This document shows positions 1-7,431 of a stretch of DNA of 57,580 nucleotides, one piece after another; positions within the stretch are counted from its first letter, which is position 1; the number at the start of each line of letters is the position of its first letter. The translations under genes and the position numbers were made by a program. The notes under the pieces were generated by a model, which was not told the DNA's origin, made no database searches, and saw nothing but the letters and a program-made list of their open reading frames with translations. The stretch comes from Candidatus Anoxychlamydiales bacterium (GTDB taxonomy: Bacteria; Chlamydiota; Chlamydiia; Chlamydiales; SM23-39). Location: assembly GCA_011065125.1 (NCBI GenBank), contig JAAKFI010000005.1:1-57580 (forward strand), given 5' to 3'.

Positions 1-991
1 GCTCTAAATCTTGAATAAAAAGACTTTTATCGCGCGGACGAGCAATCAGAACCCACGTATCTGTGATTTTTAATATTTCAGATGAAGTTGGAACTTTTCT
101 ATCATCAACAGAAGTCTCTGATGGCCAATATACACCCTTTGAGTCAAGAAATTTTACTCCAGATTGCAAAACAGCTTCGAAAGATTCTCGATCAAATGGG
201 GATACTCTCTGCGTTCGAGTATTCGTAAAATCTTTGTAAAATTTTAAAAGATCTATTGCACCTGGATTATCCGATAAATCAATAAAATCAAGTTCAAGAT
301 AATCATCGATATCGCGAGGTCCAATTTCAAGCGCCATAGTTTGATCATTTATATTTATATCAACAGCTTGAGTTATTAGAGGATGCTGAACTTTAACACC
401 TGCAACATTCCAACTCACAATTCCAATGCCCCAAGACAACTCTAATTGAGCATCTGTAATATTCCCTTCTAATTGATGTTTAATTGCAAAGAGTTGACTA
501 TAAATATTAATGGTCTTTCTTCGTTTCTTTTCTTCAACAGCCCAAGGCTTCCATAAGCTCACTAAATAAGCTCTAAATTTAGATTCGATTTTATTTTTCT
601 CTTTCAAATCTTTTAAGTTAACAGCCTCTGACTTTCCTTTAAAAAGTGCTTCGAGATATGAAATATCATATTTTTCTCCTTGAAGCTGACCCATATTAAT
701 AGATTGACGAAGTGAAGGATTTTTATTTGGAGCATTAGATATTTCTACCCAATGGATAAGGTCTGGATCAGTTAGATCGGGTACTTTTGTTTCATGTAAA
801 CGATCAATAACAAGCCATTTTCCGCCTTCTTCACTTTCAACATTAAAATGAATACCTGGTAAATCTTGAAATTCATGTTCAAATTGGCAAAAAAAATGTT
901 TCTTTACGTCATAACAAGAACGTAATTTTAATTTTGCAGACTCTTGTGCATATGTAATTAATGATATTAGTTTATTTTGATCTTGATTCAT
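1..991 (-). CDS. N-terminal ~330 aa of a probable large SF1 (UPF1/DNA2-like AAA) helicase - Vsr/DUF559-type nuclease family protein; truncated by the window edge
   Basis: Hand translation from ATG at 991 is open to position 1: MNQDQNKLISLITYAQESAKLK...WLVIDRLHETK...WKPWAVEEKKRRKTINIYSQLFAIKHQLEG...LELSWGIG...DNPG...SPFDRESFE...DTWVLIARPRDKSLFIQDLE. These blocks match my recollection of the N-terminus of this family; helicase motifs lie outside the window. Not in the ORF track. Confidence 0.7.
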   Translation of the reverse strand, partial: MNQDQNKLISLITYAQESAKLKLRSCYDVKKHFFCQFEHEFQDLPGIHFNVESEEGGKWLVIDRLHETKVPDLTDPDLIHWVEISNAPNKNPSLRQSINMGQLQGEKYDISYLEALFKGKSEAVNLKDLKEKNKIESKFRAYLVSLWKPWAVEEKKRRKTINIYSQLFAIKHQLEGNITDAQLELSWGIGIVSWNVAGVKVQHPLITQAVDININDQTMALEIGPRDIDDYLELDFIDLSDNPGAIDLLKFYKDFTNTRTQRVSPFDRESFEAVLQSGVKFLDSKGVYWPSETSVDDRKVPTSSEILKITDTWVLIARPRDKSLFIQDLE

Positions 992-1286
992 AAAGTCACG
1001 CTTATTTAATAATAAATCATAATTATTATAAATAAGTAGCATCGAAATGTAAATAAAAGAAAACAATAACAACAATTAAAGTTATTAATAAGTTTAAATA
1101 ATTAAATTTATTTAATAAAATAATTTAAAATATAATAAAAGATTATTACAATTTTATACATCTAGAGAATGAAGAGTAAAAAATATTTTAATTAAAATTT
1201 TTTATATAATTTATAATTTAAGCAATAAAATCATTTTTTTTTAACATAAAAAATATATCAGAAAAAATAAGAAAATTATTAAAATA

Positions 1287-1433
1287 ATGAATACCACAGA
1301 ACTAGGGCTGGATGAAAAAAGAAATTTAATAGAAGTTTTATTTACTGAATATTCCGTTATGAATTTTACGAATGCAGGAGATGAAAAGTATTTTTTCGAC
1401 TGGAATGAGAATCTATCACAAATTTATAACTAA
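1287..1433 (+). CDS. Small hypothetical ORF, 48 aa (MNTTELGLDEKRNLIEVLFTEYSVMNFTNAGDEKYFFDWNENLSQIYN), possibly a gene fragment
   Basis: ATG...TAA, more coding-like in composition than the surrounding near-pure AT spacer; no recognisable motif or SD. Confidence 0.3.
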   Translation: MNTTELGLDEKRNLIEVLFTEYSVMNFTNAGDEKYFFDWNENLSQIYN

Positions 1434-1451
1434 ATATTACTATAATTAATA

Positions 1452-1656
1452 TTAATCCAAAAAATACCCAAAAGGCTTTTTTAAGGCGCCTTTGCTATCT
1501 TTTCCAAAGTCTCAAGCGAAAGCCAACTCCAAACCCGTCTCCATGCCTAGAAATACGCTTCTACATTATCTTAGAAGCCTGTGCTAGATCGGCCTGAGTC
1601 ATATCAAGCTCTACCCTTGCCATCTTTACTTTCTTTCCTTATTTTTTAGCATCCAT
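1452..1656 (-). pseudogene. XRE-family HTH regulator pseudogene (paralog of 3158..3361)
   Basis: Reads MDAKK*GKKVKMARVELDMTQADLAQASKIM*KRISR.../SLETLEKIAK/LKKPFGYFLD*: two in-frame stops plus frameshifts. A 22-bp exact match links 1593-1614 and 3298-3319. Confidence 0.9.
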
Positions 1657-1718
1657 AATTTATTTCAATGTAGCAAAATTGGCTCAAATGACGGACGAAG
1701 TGGGTACCAATTCGTACT

Positions 1719-1928
1719 TTGTCGCTTATTTCGGTGAAGATTAAAATTACTAATAATAATATTATACCTTTATATAAAAAGCTAGCTCCGAAGATTAGGG
1801 AATTAAAAGTGCTTGGTATGAGAGATACAGAGATAGAAACAAAGCTAGATATCAGTAGAACAACTGTAAAAAATCGTTGCTTCCGCCCCATGGCATTCAT
1901 TCGCTCACAAAGCAATTTCTACCTCTGA
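1719..1928 (+). pseudogene. Small HTH-containing ORF remnant; the part after ~1872 is probably a chimeric junction
   Basis: PLYKKLAPKIRELKVLGMRDTEIETKLDISRTTVK has helix-turn-helix spacing; TTG start; after ~1872 the DNA belongs to a different gene read in another frame. Confidence 0.5.
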
Positions 1929-2244
1929 CGCAGCCCTTGTATCAGGTTTATCCTTTCAGGGAGGAAGTGGAAGTCCTGTATTCGTTGCCAGTCGCGGCAT
2001 TAAAATCAAAGCTAATGTAGGAGAGGCTCAATCTGCAGACTACTGCCCTCAAAAGATAATTGGAGTCATGACGGGCCATCTACAAACAATTAACTCAAAT
2101 AACAGTTCTCAAGAAAAAGCTCTAACAGATATTGCATGTCATCCAGGGAATGAGTTAGAGCAACATAGTGGGCTTTCTTACTTCACAAAATCAACAAGTA
2201 TTATTGAACTACTTAAAAAAATACCCAAAATTTCTCATAATTAA
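1870..2244 (+). pseudogene. C-terminal fragment of a trypsin-like serine protease (no start codon)
   Basis: Open frame after TAA at 1867: ...DAALVSGLSFQGGSGSPVF...KIIGVMTGH...HSGLSYFTKSTSIIELLKKIPKISHN*. GxSGSP catalytic-Ser motif followed by an IIGV strand; the N-terminal His/Asp half is missing. Confidence 0.7.
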
Positions 2245-2268
2245 GCAGCCAACGCTGAAAATAAAAAA

Positions 2269-3165
2269 TTATCTTGATTTATCGAAGATAGTAGAAGGAA
2301 AAAGATATTCTTGAGTAATACCTTGTTCTTTTAAAAATTTATCTATTTCTTCAAAAGAATCCTTTGGTAATACCAATTTAACAAAAACTTGTTTACCTGT
2401 TTTTTGCGCTAGTAAAGCCCATGATAATTCTAAATCAATTCTAAAATCCATTTGTGCAAAATATATTGCTTCTTGTCGTTTAGGTTTAGAATCTAATAAA
2501 TTATTAATTTGTTTTTCCGGATAAATTAATAAAGGTAATTGACCATACATTTTATTAGAATTATTTTTTAAACAATCCTTCAATGTATGTAAAACATCTT
2601 TAAATAAAACATTTCTCTGAAGAGCCTTACCTATAGCTTTTTGACGTACCATAAACAAGGATCCTTCTTCATTTTCATTGCGGTTTAAATTCGCAAAAAA
2701 TAAAGCAACTTTCCAATTATACGAAAAATCAATAAAACAAGTTCCTAGTGGTTTAATATCTGATAATTTCGGATCTTCAGGATTTTGCTGATGATGTCTA
2801 TGAAATTCAAAATATGAATCGATTCCTTGTTCTTTTTCTGATTTTTGTAGTTCAGGATTAATCAATATACAATCCATTTTATCCAAATAATGCTTAGCAC
2901 ATTGATGTTGATGAATTACATCATTTATAAGCTCCTCAGGATATAAATCAGTAACAGCCATCTTATTTTGTTCTTTTAAACTGCGTGCAAATGTTGACTC
3001 TAAAAGCCAATCACTTCTTCTATGCCCTCTAAAAAGAAAAGCTTCATTAATTTGTTTCTCAATATGTTCTAACTCAATTAATAAATCTTTAAATGAAGCC
3101 GGCTTCCATTCATAATTATTGTCTGATATAATAGTGCTTTCTAATTTAGGATAAAAATCACTCAT
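2269..3165 (-). CDS. FRG domain-containing protein
   Basis: FLFRGH...DWLLESTFAR and HHQQ...GTCFIDFSYNWKVALFFA correspond to the FRG and QHYG-PT-LLD-T-NP-VALFFA motifs. Confidence 0.85.
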   Translation of the reverse strand: MSDFYPKLESTIISDNNYEWKPASFKDLLIELEHIEKQINEAFLFRGHRRSDWLLESTFARSLKEQNKMAVTDLYPEELINDVIHQHQCAKHYLDKMDCILINPELQKSEKEQGIDSYFEFHRHHQQNPEDPKLSDIKPLGTCFIDFSYNWKVALFFANLNRNENEEGSLFMVRQKAIGKALQRNVLFKDVLHTLKDCLKNNSNKMYGQLPLLIYPEKQINNLLDSKPKRQEAIYFAQMDFRIDLELSWALLAQKTGKQVFVKLVLPKDSFEEIDKFLKEQGITQEYLFPSTIFDKSR

Positions 3166-3361
3166 CTAAAAAATACCCAAAAGACTTCTTTAATTTCTTA
3201 GCTATCTTTTCTAGGGTCTCTAAACTAGGTAATACTATCCCATTTTCATATCCGGAAATACTTTTTTGCATTATCCCCATAGCTTTGGCTAAATCGCCCT
3301 GAGTCATATCAAGCTCTACTCTTGCTAACTTAATTTTTTTTCCTAATTTTTTAGCATCCAT
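3158..3361 (-). CDS. XRE-family helix-turn-helix transcriptional regulator
   Basis: LGKKIKLARVELDMTQGDLAKAMGIMQKSISGYENG...PSLETLEKIAKKL is a canonical HTH_3 pattern; 8-bp overlap (ATGAGTGA) with the FRG start. Confidence 0.93.
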   Translation of the reverse strand: MDAKKLGKKIKLARVELDMTQGDLAKAMGIMQKSISGYENGIVLPSLETLEKIAKKLKKSFGYFLDE

Positions 3362-3449
3362 ATCAACTATGCCATAAGCTTGCCATTAAATTTTTCTCAT
3401 ATTGTTTAATATTTCTGATTTAAAGGAGGTAATGATTCAGATATAATAT

Positions 3450-4154
3450 TTATTCTCTTATCCTTGATTTTAAATATTCCCATGAACCCGCAGTCATTCC
3501 ACAAAGCTTTCTAACTGGAGAGAGAGAAGTTATGTTCTCTCCTAAATTACTCGATGCATTTATTATTATTGGTAAATTAAATCTAATAGCAAAAGAAACA
3601 CCATCAGCAATACTAGTAATAGCAGCAATACCACCAGCAGCACCAGCAGCACCAGCAGCAACACCAGCAACAGCAGCAGCAGTGGCACCAGCAGCAACAC
3701 CAGCAGCAGCAGCAACACCAGCAACAGCAAAAGCAGCAGCAACACCAGCAACAACAGCAGCAACACCAGCAGTAGCAGCAGCAGCAATACCAGCAGCAAC
3801 ACTAGCATTAACAAAAACAGTCATACCCACAATCTGCCCTATTCTCCATCCAAGATTAGGGGCATTATTAAATCCAGCCCTATACCCTCTATTGAAAGGT
3901 AAATTAGCATGCTGAAGGTTTATGTAATGTCTTTTCCAAGTTGTATTTGATGGCAGGGATTGATTTGGATATTCTACTTCACATTTTTGTCTCCAAGTAA
4001 CTTCATTAGCATCATGATATAATCCAGCAAGTTCTCGATTAACCTGAGCTAATTTTAAAACGTCTCTTCCAAGTAAATATTCTCTTATATGCTCTTTAAT
4101 CTCAGGGGGCATTCCCAAATAAGTTGGTTCGATTGCTGGGAAGTTTACAGTCAT
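3450..4154 (-). CDS. F-box protein with a long Ala/Gly/Val hydrophobic repeat region; candidate host-directed effector
   Basis: N-terminal LGMPPEIKEHIREYLLGRDVLKLAQVNRELAGL...W fits the F-box consensus; central region of AGVAA repeats. Confidence 0.8.
   Translation of the reverse strand: MTVNFPAIEPTYLGMPPEIKEHIREYLLGRDVLKLAQVNRELAGLYHDANEVTWRQKCEVEYPNQSLPSNTTWKRHYINLQHANLPFNRGYRAGFNNAPNLGWRIGQIVGMTVFVNASVAAGIAAAATAGVAAVVAGVAAAFAVAGVAAAAGVAAGATAAAVAGVAAGAAGAAGGIAAITSIADGVSFAIRFNLPIIINASSNLGENITSLSPVRKLCGMTAGSWEYLKSRIRE
3600..3808. repeat. Coding low-complexity trinucleotide repeat (GCA/CCA/ACA on +), with AGCAACACCAGC recurring
   Basis: Directly visible; encodes AGVAA-type units in the F-box protein. 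Confidence 0.9.
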
Positions 4155-4292
4155 GATTATTACCCTACTATTTTAGTTAATAATAACAATTATACCATTA
4201 TTATTTATAATAAATCTGTAAAATTAAATTAATATTTAAAGCGCTGATTTTCAAATTATTACATTTTTTGAAAAAATCAATTAATTCGAATA

Positions 4293-4352
4293 TTATTCAT
4301 CTAAAAAATACCCAAAAGACTTTTTAAGTTTTTTTGCTATCTTTTCTACTGT
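4293..4352 (-). pseudogene. 3'-terminal stub of a third XRE-HTH copy (TVEKIAKKLKKSFGYFLDE*)
   Basis: Matches the C-terminus of 3158..3361 with a 26-bp exact core AAGTCTTTTGGGTATTTTTTAGATGA and mostly synonymous differences; begins 9 nt from the tRNA 3' end. Confidence 0.88.
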
Positions 4353-4361
4353 ACAAAATTA

Positions 4362-4446
4362 CGGAAGAGGTAGGATTCGAACCCACGGTCCCTTGCAGGA
4401 CTTCTGTTTTCAAGACAGACGCAATCGGCCACTCTGCCACTCTTCC
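4362..4446 (-). tRNA. tRNA-Ser(TGA), CCA not encoded
   Basis: Acceptor GGAAGAG/CTCTTCC plus G discriminator; anticodon arm TCTGT-CTTGAAA-ACAGA; long variable arm GTCC...GGAC; T-loop TTCGAAT. Confidence 0.97.
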
Positions 4447-4486
4447 TTAAAAAAGATATTAACATAATAAAAAAATTTGAAACAAA

Positions 4487-5518
4487 TTACAAGGAAAATT
4501 GTTCTAAAAATCTCATATCGTTTTCAGTAAATGCTCTTATGTCTTTTATATCATACATGAGCATAGCAAGTCTCTCTATTCCCATACCTACAGCATAACC
4601 TGAGTATTTTTCAGGATCTATATTTGATGATTTTAAAACATTTGGATGGATCATCCCAGCACCTGCAACTTCTAGCCAACCTGAATGTTTACAAATTCTA
4701 CACCCCTGCCCTGAGCAAATTATACATTTAATATCTGTTTCCATACCTGGTTCAACAAATGGAAAATATGAAGGTCTAAATCTTGTTTCAATATCTTTAT
4801 CAAAAAGTTTTGAATAAAACTCTTTTAAGGTTGCAAAAAGATCCGCAAATGATGCGTTTTCATCAATATAAAAAAGATCAATTTGATGAAAAAAAACATG
4901 TGATCTTGATGAAATGTTTTCATTTCTAAAACATCTACCAGGAGCAATGCATCTAATTGGAGGATCTGATCTTTCCATTATCCTTGCTTGAACATTTGTT
5001 GTATGAGTGCGTAGCAATTTATTATCAGTTATATAAAAAGTATCTTGCATATCTCTTGCAGGATGATCTTTTTCGAAATTTAAACTCTCGAAATTATAAA
5101 AATCAGATTCTACGTTAGGTCCTAATTCAACAGAAAAACCCATACTTACAAAAATATCTATAGCTCTTTGCATTAAAAGAGAAATTGGATGGGATCTTCC
5201 CCAAAAGTTTTTCTTTCCGGGTAGTGTAATATCTAAAACTTCACTTGCAAGTTTTTTTTCTTCTTCTTTATTAGATATTTGACATAACTCATTTTGAAGA
5301 TGTGATGTAACCTCTTGTTTGAGATCATTTATTTTTTTCCCAAAAAGAGGTTTTTCAGTATTTGATACACCTTTTAAATGTGACATTAGGGATTGGATTA
5401 AGCCCTTTTTTCCAAGATACTTAATTTTTAGATTTTCAATGTCTTTAGAAGTATTTACTTTTTTTAAATCATTTAAAAAATCTGATCTAATTTCATTTAT
5501 ATTAGTATCTAATGTCAT
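4487..5518 (-). CDS. pheS: Phenylalanine--tRNA ligase alpha subunit
   Basis: HPARDMQDTF, LLRTHT, FRPSYFPFVEP, GMGIERLAM motifs. Confidence 0.98.
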   Translation of the reverse strand: MTLDTNINEIRSDFLNDLKKVNTSKDIENLKIKYLGKKGLIQSLMSHLKGVSNTEKPLFGKKINDLKQEVTSHLQNELCQISNKEEEKKLASEVLDITLPGKKNFWGRSHPISLLMQRAIDIFVSMGFSVELGPNVESDFYNFESLNFEKDHPARDMQDTFYITDNKLLRTHTTNVQARIMERSDPPIRCIAPGRCFRNENISSRSHVFFHQIDLFYIDENASFADLFATLKEFYSKLFDKDIETRFRPSYFPFVEPGMETDIKCIICSGQGCRICKHSGWLEVAGAGMIHPNVLKSSNIDPEKYSGYAVGMGIERLAMLMYDIKDIRAFTENDMRFLEQFSL

Positions 5519-5524
5519 TTTTTT

Positions 5525-5884
5525 TTAAGCTACCATTGCTTTCTTTGCTGTTACCACAACCTCTGTAAAAGCTTTTGGATCATGCATAGCAAGTGATGCT
5601 AACATCTTTCTATTTACTAGACAGTTTGCTTTTTTAAGGCCGTGTATAAGCTTACTATAACTCATTCCGTTAATTCTTGCAGCAATATTTATTCTAATAT
5701 TCCAAAGTTTTCTAAAATCAGATTTCTTTTTCTTTCTATGAATATAATTATATGCAAGCGCTTTCATTACAGCATTTTTAGCAATTCTTATGTGATTTTT
5801 TCTATCACCATAAAAACCTTTTGCTAGCTTTAATATTCTTTTTCTTCTTTTTCTTGAAGATACAGCGCAGGTCACTCTAGCCAT
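5525..5884 (-). CDS. rplT: 50S ribosomal protein L20
   Basis: MARV...[12 protein letters not shown]...FRKLW..RIN; infC-rpmI-rplT-pheS order. Confidence 0.98.
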
Positions 5885-5902
5885 TTTATTTTACTCCTTT
5901 AT

Positions 5903-6103
5903 TTAACTACTTAAAAGCTTTATATAAGTTTTTCTATGTGCTTCACTTACAAGAGCTTTTTTTGAAAGTCTTCTTTTTCTATTAGATGACTTTTTAGTTA
6001 AAATATGTCTTTTGTTTTGTTTAGTTCTTTTAATTTTACCGTTTTTTGTTAATTTAAAACGCTTTGCTAAAGCTTTTTTCGTTTTTGCTTTTACTTTACT
6101 CAC
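5903..6103 (-). CDS. rpmI: 50S ribosomal protein L35
   Basis: KTKKALAKRFKLT..GKIKR...KRHILTKKS. Start moved to GTG at 6103, which has AAGGAG upstream. Confidence 0.93.
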   Translation of the reverse strand: MSKVKAKTKKALAKRFKLTKNGKIKRTKQNKRHILTKKSSNRKRRLSKKALVSEAHRKTYIKLLSS

Positions 6104-6620
6104 TACTTGCTCCTTTATATTTTTTCCCAATTGGCGCTAATACAGTTACAATTGTTCTTCCCATTAATTTTAAAGGAGACTCTATTTGAGCTATATCCTG
6201 AAGGTCATCTATTAATCGTTGTATGATTTTTTTTCCTTGCTCAGTATGTAGCATTTGTCTTCCCCTAAAAGATAATGTAACTTTTACTTTGTAACCTTTT
6301 AATATAAATTCTTTTGCATGTTTTTCTTTTGTTAAAAAATCATGGTTATCAATATTAGGCTTAAATTTTATCTCTTTTAGCTTTACTTGATGTTGTGATT
6401 TCTTACCCTCTTTTTCTCTTTTTAATTGCTGATATTTATATTTCCCAAAATCAATAATTTTGCAAACAGGAGGTTTAGCATTTGAAGATATTTCAACTAA
6501 ATCCAAATCTTTATCTGCAGCTAGGTTTAATGCTTCACTTAAGCTCATTACTCCAGCTTGAGACCCATCACTGTTTATCACTCTTACTTTATCAGCTCGA
6601 ATTTGTCTGTTTATTCTCAA
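6096..6620 (-). CDS. infC: Translation initiation factor IF-3 (TTG start)
   Basis: RINRQIR...DLVEIS.NAKPPVCKIIDFGKYKY...KEIKFKPNI; SD AAGGA before TTG, with an in-frame stop just upstream. Confidence 0.97.
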   Translation of the reverse strand: MRINRQIRADKVRVINSDGSQAGVMSLSEALNLAADKDLDLVEISSNAKPPVCKIIDFGKYKYQQLKREKEGKKSQHQVKLKEIKFKPNIDNHDFLTKEKHAKEFILKGYKVKVTLSFRGRQMLHTEQGKKIIQRLIDDLQDIAQIESPLKLMGRTIVTVLAPIGKKYKGASSE

Positions 6621-6843
6621 GTTTAATCCTTAATTCAAATATTTATAGATAAAAACATATGAAATATATTAAATCATATCTATATTTTTTTTACATATTT
6701 AATTTTTATTCTTTTCAAAGAACTTATGTTTTTTAAAAAAAAAACTTTATTTTTACATAAACTCTTATATTTTAAACTCTTTTACAATTGATTTTCAAGT
6801 ATCTTTTCTTATAAACTATTAAATTAATTAAAATTTTTTTTTT

Positions 6844-7431
6844 ATGTCTGAAATAAAATATAAGCCACATATAAAACTAGCTCATGATTTATGGAGTAAA
6901 TTTTTAAAAAAAGATTTTATATGCATAGATGCTACTATAGGCAATGGATTTGATACATTATTTCTATTAGAACTATCTACAAAATATAATTTAAAAAAAA
7001 TTATTGGATTTGATATTCAAAAACAAGCAATAGACAATACAAAAAATCTTTTGAAAAAAAATTTTAATCTTGAGGATTTAAAAAAAATTAATCTTTTTTT
7101 GAGTTCTCATGAAGACTTTTCAAAACATTTAAAAGAAAAAATAAATTTATTTATTTATAATTTAGGCTATCTTCCTAAATCTGATAAATCTATTACAACA
7201 AAATCTAAAACTACTATTCAAAGTATAAAATCGGCTTTTTTGCATTTAAGTCAAAATGGGGCTATTTCTATTACAGTCTATCCAGGTCATAGTGAAGGTA
7301 AAATTGAAGAAATAGAAATTTTAAAATTTTTAGAGGAAATAGATTATAAAATTTATAATATTATGCAATATAAATGGCTCAATAAAAAAAATAGTCCCTT
7401 TGTAATTTGGATTGAAAAATTATCAACTTAA
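6844..7431 (+). CDS. ytqB: Class I SAM-dependent methyltransferase, YtqB/MnmM-like
   Basis: IDATIGNGFDT, FDIQ.QA, NLGYLP..DKSITT, VYPGH.EG. Confidence 0.8.
   Translation: MSEIKYKPHIKLAHDLWSKFLKKDFICIDATIGNGFDTLFLLELSTKYNLKKIIGFDIQKQAIDNTKNLLKKNFNLEDLKKINLFLSSHEDFSKHLKEKINLFIYNLGYLPKSDKSITTKSKTTIQSIKSAFLHLSQNGAISITVYPGHSEGKIEEIEILKFLEEIDYKIYNIMQYKWLNKKNSPFVIWIEKLST

Follow-up and report, generated by a model that had tools for sequence, protein, structure and literature searches.

A probable tandem array of decayed integrative elements at tRNA-Ser in an Anoxychlamydiales genome

In Dehalococcoides, islands integrated at ssrA are associated with the serine recombinase DsiB (McMurdie et al. 2011, PMC3146451). 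As set out in the available text of that paper, the islands stand in tandem downstream of a tRNA-like gene, are bounded by direct repeats of its 3' end and carry variable cargo, with a serine recombinase of ~540 aa encoded beside the left attachment site (attL). Some have no integration module and are discussed there as cis-mobilisable, or as fixed by accretion. By description, these islands are the closest published parallel that we found for the locus reported here. We analysed a 57,580 nt stretch of DNA, the window, which is the whole of contig C45 (GenBank JAAKFI010000005.1) from Candidatus Anoxychlamydiales bacterium. The source assembly, G000 (GCA_011065125.1), is a 96% complete metagenome-assembled genome (MAG) of 1.39 Mb in 57 contigs. 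Other G-numbers denote family genomes, L-numbers the homologous loci compared and C-numbers contigs. Copies of a gene encoding an XRE regulator, a Cro/CI-type helix-turn-helix (HTH) protein, are found downstream of a tRNA-Ser gene. We conclude, with a probability of roughly 0.8, that decayed copies of one integrative-element family form a tandem array here, of which positions 1-4361 are the part nearest the tRNA.

The array shares with ssrA islands its tandem layout downstream of a tRNA gene, its boundaries at repeats of the tRNA 3' end and its variable cargo. In related elements, a large serine recombinase (LSR) is encoded beside attL. Here, the target is tRNA-Ser rather than the tmRNA gene ssrA, and the phylum is different. 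The six-gene integration module of the ssrA islands, with DsiA and RecF-, ParB- and Mom-like genes, is not seen; instead, the backbone comprises the LSR, a small open reading frame (ORF), the XRE gene and a tail ORF. An attachment site (attP) inside the recombinase gene is not mentioned in the available text on ssrA islands. The tDNA islands of Islander (Hudson et al. 2015, PMC4383910) likewise lie between an intact tRNA gene and a displaced tRNA 3' fragment, have an integrase beside the tRNA, and include tandem arrays and decayed islands. In the accessible parts of that paper, the enzymes are tyrosine integrases, and serine integrases are said not to be known to target tRNA genes; the enzyme of the present family has Resolvase, Recombinase and Zn_ribbon_recom domains. 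Prochlorococcus tycheposons (Hackl et al., bioRxiv 10.1101/2020.12.28.424599) are also small cargo elements at tRNA genes, with variable islands and tandem junctions. As far as the preprint text available goes, 910/937 use tyrosine recombinases, a minority encode a large serine recombinase, and replication genes are present in many; the XRE and tail backbone is not described there.

Both recombinase domain architecture and short two-arm attachment (att) sites resemble those of large serine integrases from phages and integrative and conjugative elements, such as A118/LI, phiC31, Bxb1 and SPbeta SprA. According to the accounts at hand, those integrases have separate directionality factors; none was identified in the element family here. 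Their targets are protein-coding or intergenic sites and, to our knowledge, they do not carry attP inside the integrase ORF. For the Myxococcus phage Mx8, integration reportedly cuts the frame of the tyrosine recombinase (intP/intX). Archaeal tyrosine integrases of the SSV type have attP within their own ORF (Badel et al. 2020, PMC7253208). Similarly to the SSV-type enzymes as portrayed in the available text, integration here cuts a frame that connects the LSR C-terminus, by way of the att core, with the tail. Unlike in those enzymes, no more than the last ~60-70 residues, which form an HTH, are swapped for about a dozen tRNA-encoded residues, and the enzyme is a serine recombinase. Integron arrays consist of serial short cargo units, separated by repeated sites, at a fixed anchor. 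The same can be said of the present array. However, each of its units is a whole small element, which brings its own regulator and once had an integrase as well. The tyrosine integrase IntI, attI and attC-bounded cassettes are all absent; what repeats is the XRE coding end and sites resembling a tRNA. Among the ORFs at positions 1-7000 of the window, none was identified as an integrase of any type. Word searches of open-access main text returned no description of tRNA-Ser-targeting LSR elements in bacteria of the Planctomycetes-Verrucomicrobia-Chlamydiae (PVC) group. As genomic islands, such arrays are of a familiar kind; the element family is widespread and apparently undescribed, and its integrases have received little description.

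Briefly, an intact element would start at the tRNA-Ser 3' end (attL) with an LSR gene of ~585 codons on the opposite strand, its last codons entering the tRNA. A control region of ~250 nt with the palindrome TATACC-N6-GGTATA would follow, then the gene for the 67-aa XRE reading inward and 1-10 kb of variable, mostly anti-phage, cargo. At the far end, an HTH tail ORF of ~60 codons would read inward, followed by a tRNA-like att repeat (attR). New copies would insert at the tRNA and older copies would be pushed outward. The whole order of tRNA-Ser, LSR, XRE, cargo, tail and att repeat is seen in L093, L095 and L098. In the window, the XRE gene, cargo, tail and att repeat retain the family order and orientation, but the LSR is missing.

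To define the family we used 43 loci encoding an XRE protein 61-87% identical over all 67 residues. The other 37 of 80 kept loci were 46-51% identical, were from Streptococcus in all cases but one, and were not used. By record title, the 43 loci comprise 12 from Chlamydiota, 14 from Omnitrophota, 7 from Verrucomicrobia, 4 from Planctomycetota and 6 from other or unnamed sources. An LSR or LSR remnant lies directly upstream of XRE, and divergent from it, at 28/39 assessable loci; for the other 4/43 the contig begins less than ~100 nt upstream of XRE. At 24/43 loci there is a tRNA-Ser gene upstream on the XRE strand (UGA 11, GGA 5, CGA 2, GCU 6). The LSR genes of relatives run into tRNA-Ser, with the LSR 3' end overlapping or abutting the tRNA at 17/43 loci. 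Domain matches of the 585-aa protein of one relative (Resolvase, 1.6e-27; Recombinase, 5.7e-20; Zn_ribbon_recom, 1.5e-8) identify the LSR as a genuine large serine recombinase. Orthologues 73-90% identical to the intact XRE of the window adjoin LSR genes and, in G047, both XRE copies are 250-260 nt from LSR genes. Full-length XRE proteins at least 64% identical occur in 10/103 family genomes.

The palindrome TATACC-N6-GGTATA is found 37-65 nt upstream of the XRE start at 25/43 loci (L091-L133), including nearly all those with an intact LSR. It is likely to be the XRE operator, and we infer that XRE is an autoregulatory repressor acting there. XRE orthologues are under strong purifying selection, with proportions of nonsynonymous differences (pN) of 0.03-0.20 and of synonymous differences (pS) of 0.5-1.2. 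Given the linkage to LSR and tRNA-Ser, the palindrome and this selection, we conclude that XRE is the conserved regulator gene of an integrative element, positioned like a phage repressor beside the integrase. Between the XRE control region and the LSR gene, on the LSR strand, is a small, conserved ORF of roughly 60-65 codons (about 5753-5950 of L098, from G047:C21). It occupies the same place in L091, L093-L095 and L099; in L099 it stops just ahead of the LSR ribosome-binding site and ATG. This ORF may be a further backbone gene and is possibly a directionality factor. XRE proteins 67-69% identical also appear on short contigs binned to an archaeal MAG and a Sulfurimonas MAG (L117 and L119), reflecting either mis-binning or transfer beyond the PVC group.

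We next consider the attachment sites. The window contains a sole tRNA gene, tRNA-Ser(UGA), at 4362-4446 on the minus strand (ARAGORN), next to pheS (4487-5518, minus strand). The tRNA 3' end is the predicted chromosomal attachment site (attB) of the family. Among 21 family loci examined, 18 have pheS beside tRNA-Ser; no tRNA was detected at the remaining 3, and one of those contigs stops ~100 nt beyond pheS. In this family, attL is the tRNA followed by a conserved P' arm, ...CCAATTCGTACC, i.e. ...CCAATTCG(T/A)ACC. The attR site is a tRNA-like P arm, GGTACGAATTGG...TCCG, i.e. GG(T)TACGAATTGG...TCCG, beyond which the flank is unrelated. Each arm is an inverted copy of the other and the left arm mimics the tRNA T-arm. 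Crossover would fall at the last bases of the tRNA. Complete sites, with both P and P' arms, are present at junctions between tandem units. The same two-arm structure is found at attL and attR of LSR-bearing elements in several phyla.

A 48 nt, two-arm, attP-like junction of this kind occupies 1670-1717 of the window (minus strand), with the P arm at 1692-1717, a spacer at 1683-1691 and a degenerate P' arm at 1670-1682. At this junction, one element remnant ends and another begins. This is also where the duplication of the tRNA 3' end, envisaged in a preliminary description of the window, is located. Distal direct repeats of the tRNA 3' end comprise this P arm and two more on contig C34, and all have diverged rather than being exact. 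Next to the tRNA itself, 13 nt at 4349-4361 (minus strand; TAATTTTGTACAG) form a degenerate remnant of the element-side half-site, or P' arm. The remnant aligns to the canonical flank of relatives, ...CCAATTCGTACC, and to 1670-1682.

The tail ORF (1677-1928, plus strand), identified by homology to a copy on C34 and to other tails, is 61.5% identical to the C34 copy. Together, the att repeat and tail of the window span 1670-1928. In G008, G010 and G017, homologues of the tail are found downstream of tRNA-Ser and invariably on the opposite strand to that gene. The tail occurs in 23/103 family genomes, with up to 8 matches per genome, and copies are frequently 0.8-3.7 kb apart and frequently at contig ends. 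In the complete elements L093, L095 and L098 it is at the far end. We conclude that the tail is a conserved coding segment of ~60 codons at the far (attR) end, reading inward from the att repeat. It is under purifying selection, with a median pN/pS of 0.35 (27 copies, 351 pairs; pS near saturation). Our table of tails has 36 rows, one place being entered twice (L066, L084), and at least 59 codons are kept open in 33/36. A conserved start codon was not found in these rows: an ATG is present within 12 codons upstream in 13/36, and 14/36 have no ATG, GTG or TTG in the open frame, which does not exclude a start codon.

Four XRE copies or remnants are present in the window, all on the minus strand. 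The intact gene (3158-3361) encodes 67 aa, matches Pfam HTH_3 (E 4e-16; 59.2 bits against a cut-off of 23) and has a stop codon overlapping the start of the following FRG gene by 8 nt. A pseudogene at about 1455-1656 has 75% nucleotide identity to the intact copy and is disrupted by two TAG stops, one TAA stop and two 2-nt indels. A 56-nt 3' stub (4293-4348) retains the final 18 codons plus stop, with 87% identity to the intact copy over 60 nt. The stub is untranslatable; there is an in-frame TAA directly upstream and the start codon is missing. These are the three copies named in the preliminary description, at the places it gave. We add a fourth, short relic of an XRE 3' end at 2216-2244, detected by a shared 15-mer and by local alignment (score 32; matched by 4/500 shuffles). 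The 15-mer, TTTTGGGTATTTTTT, occurs only 4 times in the whole 1.39-Mb assembly, always at XRE ends in the window. No further XRE copy was found in the genome. A match to the XRE 3' end on C33 was rejected as chance, since it sits within a secretin-like ORF.

Over 18 aligned codons, stub and intact gene differ with a pS of 0.50 and a pN of 0.045. The junction codon and one Leu path account for the whole nonsynonymous count. Codons that differ are GCA/GCT, AAA/AAG, CTT/TTA, AAA/AAG, GAA/GAG and TAA/TGA. This pS is about that between the intact copy and XRE genes of other genera (0.50-0.57). Because the stub is untranslatable and the differences are synonymous, the divergence must have arisen while both copies worked in different element lineages, or have come by gene conversion. 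Hence, the earlier observation of almost exclusively synonymous change holds. So does its interpretation that the copies evolved as functional genes and not by fresh duplication.

At least three units would remain in G000, each having lost its LSR by deletions that ended at or beside an att half-site. Unit A would consist of the tRNA, the arm remnant, the XRE stub and a gene for an F-box-like protein. Unit B would comprise the XRE-FRG pair, the XRE relic, an unassigned fragment, the tail and the att repeat, with the boundary between A and B deleted. Unit C would hold the XRE pseudogene and a helicase-nuclease gene that runs off the contig end. Three deletion scars are visible. At 1657-1669, the pseudogene begins 13 nt past the outer arm of the att junction; at 4349-4361, the stub directly follows the degenerate outer arm; and, at 3362-3449, the att site expected between units A and B is gone. 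Contig C34 would add two further tail and att sites beside chromosomal genes, probably continuing the array. On its end (57195-58236; 7196-8237 of L068) are a degenerate LSR tail, a complete att junction whose tail ORF is intact (71 aa), an unassigned ORF of 132 aa and, truncated where the contig stops, a second junction with its tail. The C34 array end directly follows a chromosomal gene for an RRM-type RNA-binding protein. All three G000 tails, one in the window and two on C34, share one orientation. Hence, the C34 end probably precedes the C45 start, and the gap would hold the remainder of the helicase-nuclease gene. The array would now be immobile.

Occupancy of the site and the identity of the cargo vary among relatives. 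FRG genes occur in 3/61 family genomes. The site is empty in G072, with no element or P' arm after the tRNA, whereas its congener G008 carries XRE-FRG. G008 represents a different genus from G000 (pheS 61% identical). From the tRNA, its order is the arm, the last ~46 LSR codons, XRE (73%), FRG (42%), fragments resembling insertion sequences, a DUF4379 protein and the tail; XRE and FRG overlap by 8 nt, as in G000. In G010 and G017, the same tRNA is followed by AbiEi/AbiEii and AAA_14 ATPases. Across the family, the cargo after XRE varies by locus and consists mostly of defence genes. Restriction-modification (R-M) systems of types I, II and III are represented: HpaII R-M with Vsr and a SMODS protein, type I and type III R-M, and AlwI R-M. 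Other cargo includes Abi_2, AbiEii, SIR2 with a PLD-helicase, an RHS protein, Cas5, kinases of the CPT and APH families and a Tad2-like protein. Cargo also differs between units within the G000 array. In a third genus, distant XRE-like (31%) and FRG-like (27%) ORFs lie less than 3 kb from pheS-tRNA-Ser (G014:C20 459-641 and 1060-1458; L040). The preliminary description had pictured a hotspot where XRE-headed modules were stacked serially, perhaps by repeated integration of one family. The LSR/tRNA-Ser linkage of XRE homologues and the variable cargo, both here and at homologous loci, bear this out. The boundaries of the units, on the other hand, are the att repeats and tail, and XRE is a regulator, not a head that captures genes. 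The integrase that it sought is present in relatives as the LSR and absent from the G000 assembly.

What we regard as observed is the anatomy, the linkage of XRE, LSR and tRNA-Ser across the family, the variation in cargo and the patterns of selection. Several points weigh against a decayed tandem array. A tblastn search of the other 56 contigs found no LSR gene, although the assembly is 96% complete; an 18-aa remnant on C34 was all that it returned. Because the assembly has no LSR gene, we infer LSR-driven integration in G000 from relatives, where the integrase does lie next to attL. The att sites of the window are degenerate, and no att site is found between the F-box-like gene and the intact XRE gene (3362-3449). 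The split between units A and B is a reconstruction because the att repeat there is gone. The canonical palindrome is missing upstream of both G000 XRE copies, and from G008. In addition, 11/39 assessable XRE loci give no LSR match and four of these (L102, L105, L106 and L131) have cyclase genes as opposite-strand neighbours; hence, not every XRE copy need belong to an element. Finally, contigs from public runs (2-5x) never span the region where C34 and C45 would join.

All four public runs derive from one sample and are available as low-depth contigs. Several single low-depth contigs of the sample leave the window sequence at 1692-1767 and 3357-3363 for other sequence. Past the break, one of them reads on into the C34 tail copy and another into a canonical region upstream of XRE, similar to that in G047. 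These contigs may represent related elements, array variants or strains in the community. Among 59 pheS-bearing contigs of family genomes, at least 13 end within about 750 nt on the tRNA-Ser side, which suggests that assemblies often break at the pheS-tRNA-Ser hotspot.

Three other explanations would dispense with serial integration of whole elements. The preliminary description had raised capture of cassettes, in which the ~55-nt XRE 3' end with TTTTGGGTATTTTTT would be an attC-like recombination site for single cargo genes. Four XRE 3' ends on the same strand do bracket single genes, F-box-like and FRG, and the 15-mer is unique to them. G095 shares the arm-stub junction, over a homology of only 37 nt and with another gene behind, and more stubs abut att sites in L130 and G007. 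However, breakpoints at stubs vary, from XRE residue ~30 in L130 to 45 in G007 and 49 in G000 and G095, which fits deletions better than a fixed crossover. The 28 loci with an LSR or its remnant each show a single XRE match, except L130 and L125, and no recombinase is associated with the XRE end. Short-homology deletion explains the junctions, given the likeness of XRE codons 45-50 to the P' arm. Capture of cassettes is neither needed nor shown, and we consider it improbable.

It is slightly less probable again that this is an ordinary defence island, where XRE-regulated pairs were gathered by selection and illegitimate recombination and tRNA-like repeats are incidental. XRE-type regulators head many defence operons, the XRE here matches the PADLOC models HTH_VI, RmrA and capH, and G000 has no integrase. 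Against this, the repeats share the two-arm structure of LSR-bearing elements from several phyla, and the tail ORF and LSR remnants stand at their expected positions. Local duplication of one resident XRE gene, with decay of the copies and unrelated insertions as neighbours, is disfavoured and is the least probable of the three. It would account for the confinement of all copies in the genome to 3 kb on a single strand. It does not account for a stub that is as distant from the intact gene as orthologues of other genera (pS 0.50, with almost no nonsynonymous change), or for a pseudogene of just 75% identity. Furthermore, each copy holds the position relative to the att site that XRE has in intact elements. 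Serial integration of one element family, followed by decay, remains our preferred explanation.

The arm-stub junctions recur in other genomes. That of G000, where the outer arm meets XRE from about residue 49, is found in G095, which belongs to a different genus. Homology is limited to the arm plus 37 nt, and a different gene, of 318 aa, is next in G095. Similar junctions involve XRE residue ~30 in L130 (Planctomycetia) and ~45 in G007. XRE codons 45-50 (about 3212-3229 of the window; also in L093-L133) resemble the outer P' arm, as in CAATTGAAAC compared with CAATTCGAAC in Omnitrophota elements. Hence, recurrent deletion by short homology could yield the stubs. Shared descent with later exchange of cargo, or units without an LSR mobilised in trans, are possible origins too.

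At four natural tandem junctions (L036, L077, L073 and L089), the LSR frame extends across the att core to include the tail; the corresponding frame on C34 is degenerate and has lost register. Five proteins from metagenomes, 155-314 aa long and in some cases from high-GC lineages, span the LSR C-terminus, core and tail. No full-length LSR-tail fusion was found, the longest junction-spanning protein among 1.84 billion representatives being 314 aa. The largest open frame at a tail in the 103 family genomes is 192 aa. One joint reading of these data is tentative, and we think it rather doubtful. In this scheme, attP would lie within the LSR gene. An excised or tandem copy would make an LSR with an HTH tail of ~65 residues, and a freshly integrated copy an LSR ending in about a dozen tRNA-encoded residues. 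The switch between the two forms would contribute to setting the direction of recombination. Units without an LSR would stay mobilisable in trans provided that they kept both att half-sites and the tail. These might include units headed by a full XRE gene or by a stub, such as the stub unit common to G000 and G095, with different cargo. If so, arrays like that of G000 would be working stores of exchangeable defence cassettes and not dead relics.

By our preferred account, the puzzling pattern of XRE repeats would be the footprint of one specific, widespread mobile-element family. The G000 locus is a decayed, integrase-less relic that adds anatomy and no new principle; interest lies in the family rather than in this locus. 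Defence islands of environmental chlamydiae and other PVC bacteria would be assembled at tRNA-Ser by a serine integrase, whereas tyrosine integrases are normally regarded as the builders of islands at tRNA genes. Four markers, namely XRE, the TATACC-N6-GGTATA palindrome, the tail ORF and the two-arm att site, can be used to search for islands of this kind and for new candidate defence genes. Serine integrases of this family also have a natural target that is conserved and universal, the tRNA-Ser 3' end, and may have a directionality switch built in.

We then examined the cargo genes of the window. The FRG-domain protein (2269-3165, minus strand) matches Pfam FRG (36.2 bits against a cut-off of 25) and PADLOC PDC-S15 (E 3.5e-14), in agreement with its previous label. 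It is a candidate single-gene defence effector. FRG is a domain of the ART superfamily that, in the text available to us, may serve as an NADase effector (Iyer et al. 2022). XRE-FRG would then be a regulated NAD-directed defence module. The large gene at 2-1075 (minus strand) is cut by the contig end, leaving the N-terminal 358 codons. Its product has no family match by itself in Pfam or PADLOC, so the label helicase-nuclease is not supported directly. It has 24% identity (E 5e-8) to the N-terminus of a 1634-aa protein in L122, which does support the label. That protein is encoded next after XRE in an Omnitrophota element and combines a helicase with a restriction endonuclease; it has AAA_11/AAA_12 and MTES_1575 domains and matches PDC-S37 and Hhe. 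By this similarity, the window gene is probably an Hhe/PDC-S37-like helicase-nuclease, the cargo of a second element remnant. A tblastn search of the other 56 contigs did not find its remainder.

The open frame at 1882-2244 (plus strand), whose translation has a GGSGSP motif, had been called a protease fragment; it matches no Pfam family at E <= 0.05, which leaves the name unconfirmed. The HTH remnant described at 1719-1928 is real and is reinterpreted as part of the element tail ORF. The 234-aa accessory protein encoded at 3450-4154 (minus strand) has a weak F-box-like N-terminus and an Ala/Gly/Val-rich repeat region. Its score for Pfam F-box-like (17.1 bits, E 0.0047) is below the cut-off of 24.3, so the F-box label stands as a weak likeness. 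We considered this gene as recurrent element cargo and dropped the idea, since there are weak matches in just 2/102 other family genomes. Within it, at 3566-3840, are about 15 overlapping periodic repeats of 9-15 nt and of GCTGCTGGTGTT type. They encode the Ala/Gly/Val-rich stretch, and both strands are open there. Elsewhere, three tRNA-Ser genes (UGA, CGA and GGA) lie within 2 kb on a Planctomycetales contig (L112 1983-4012), and the element is in the third.

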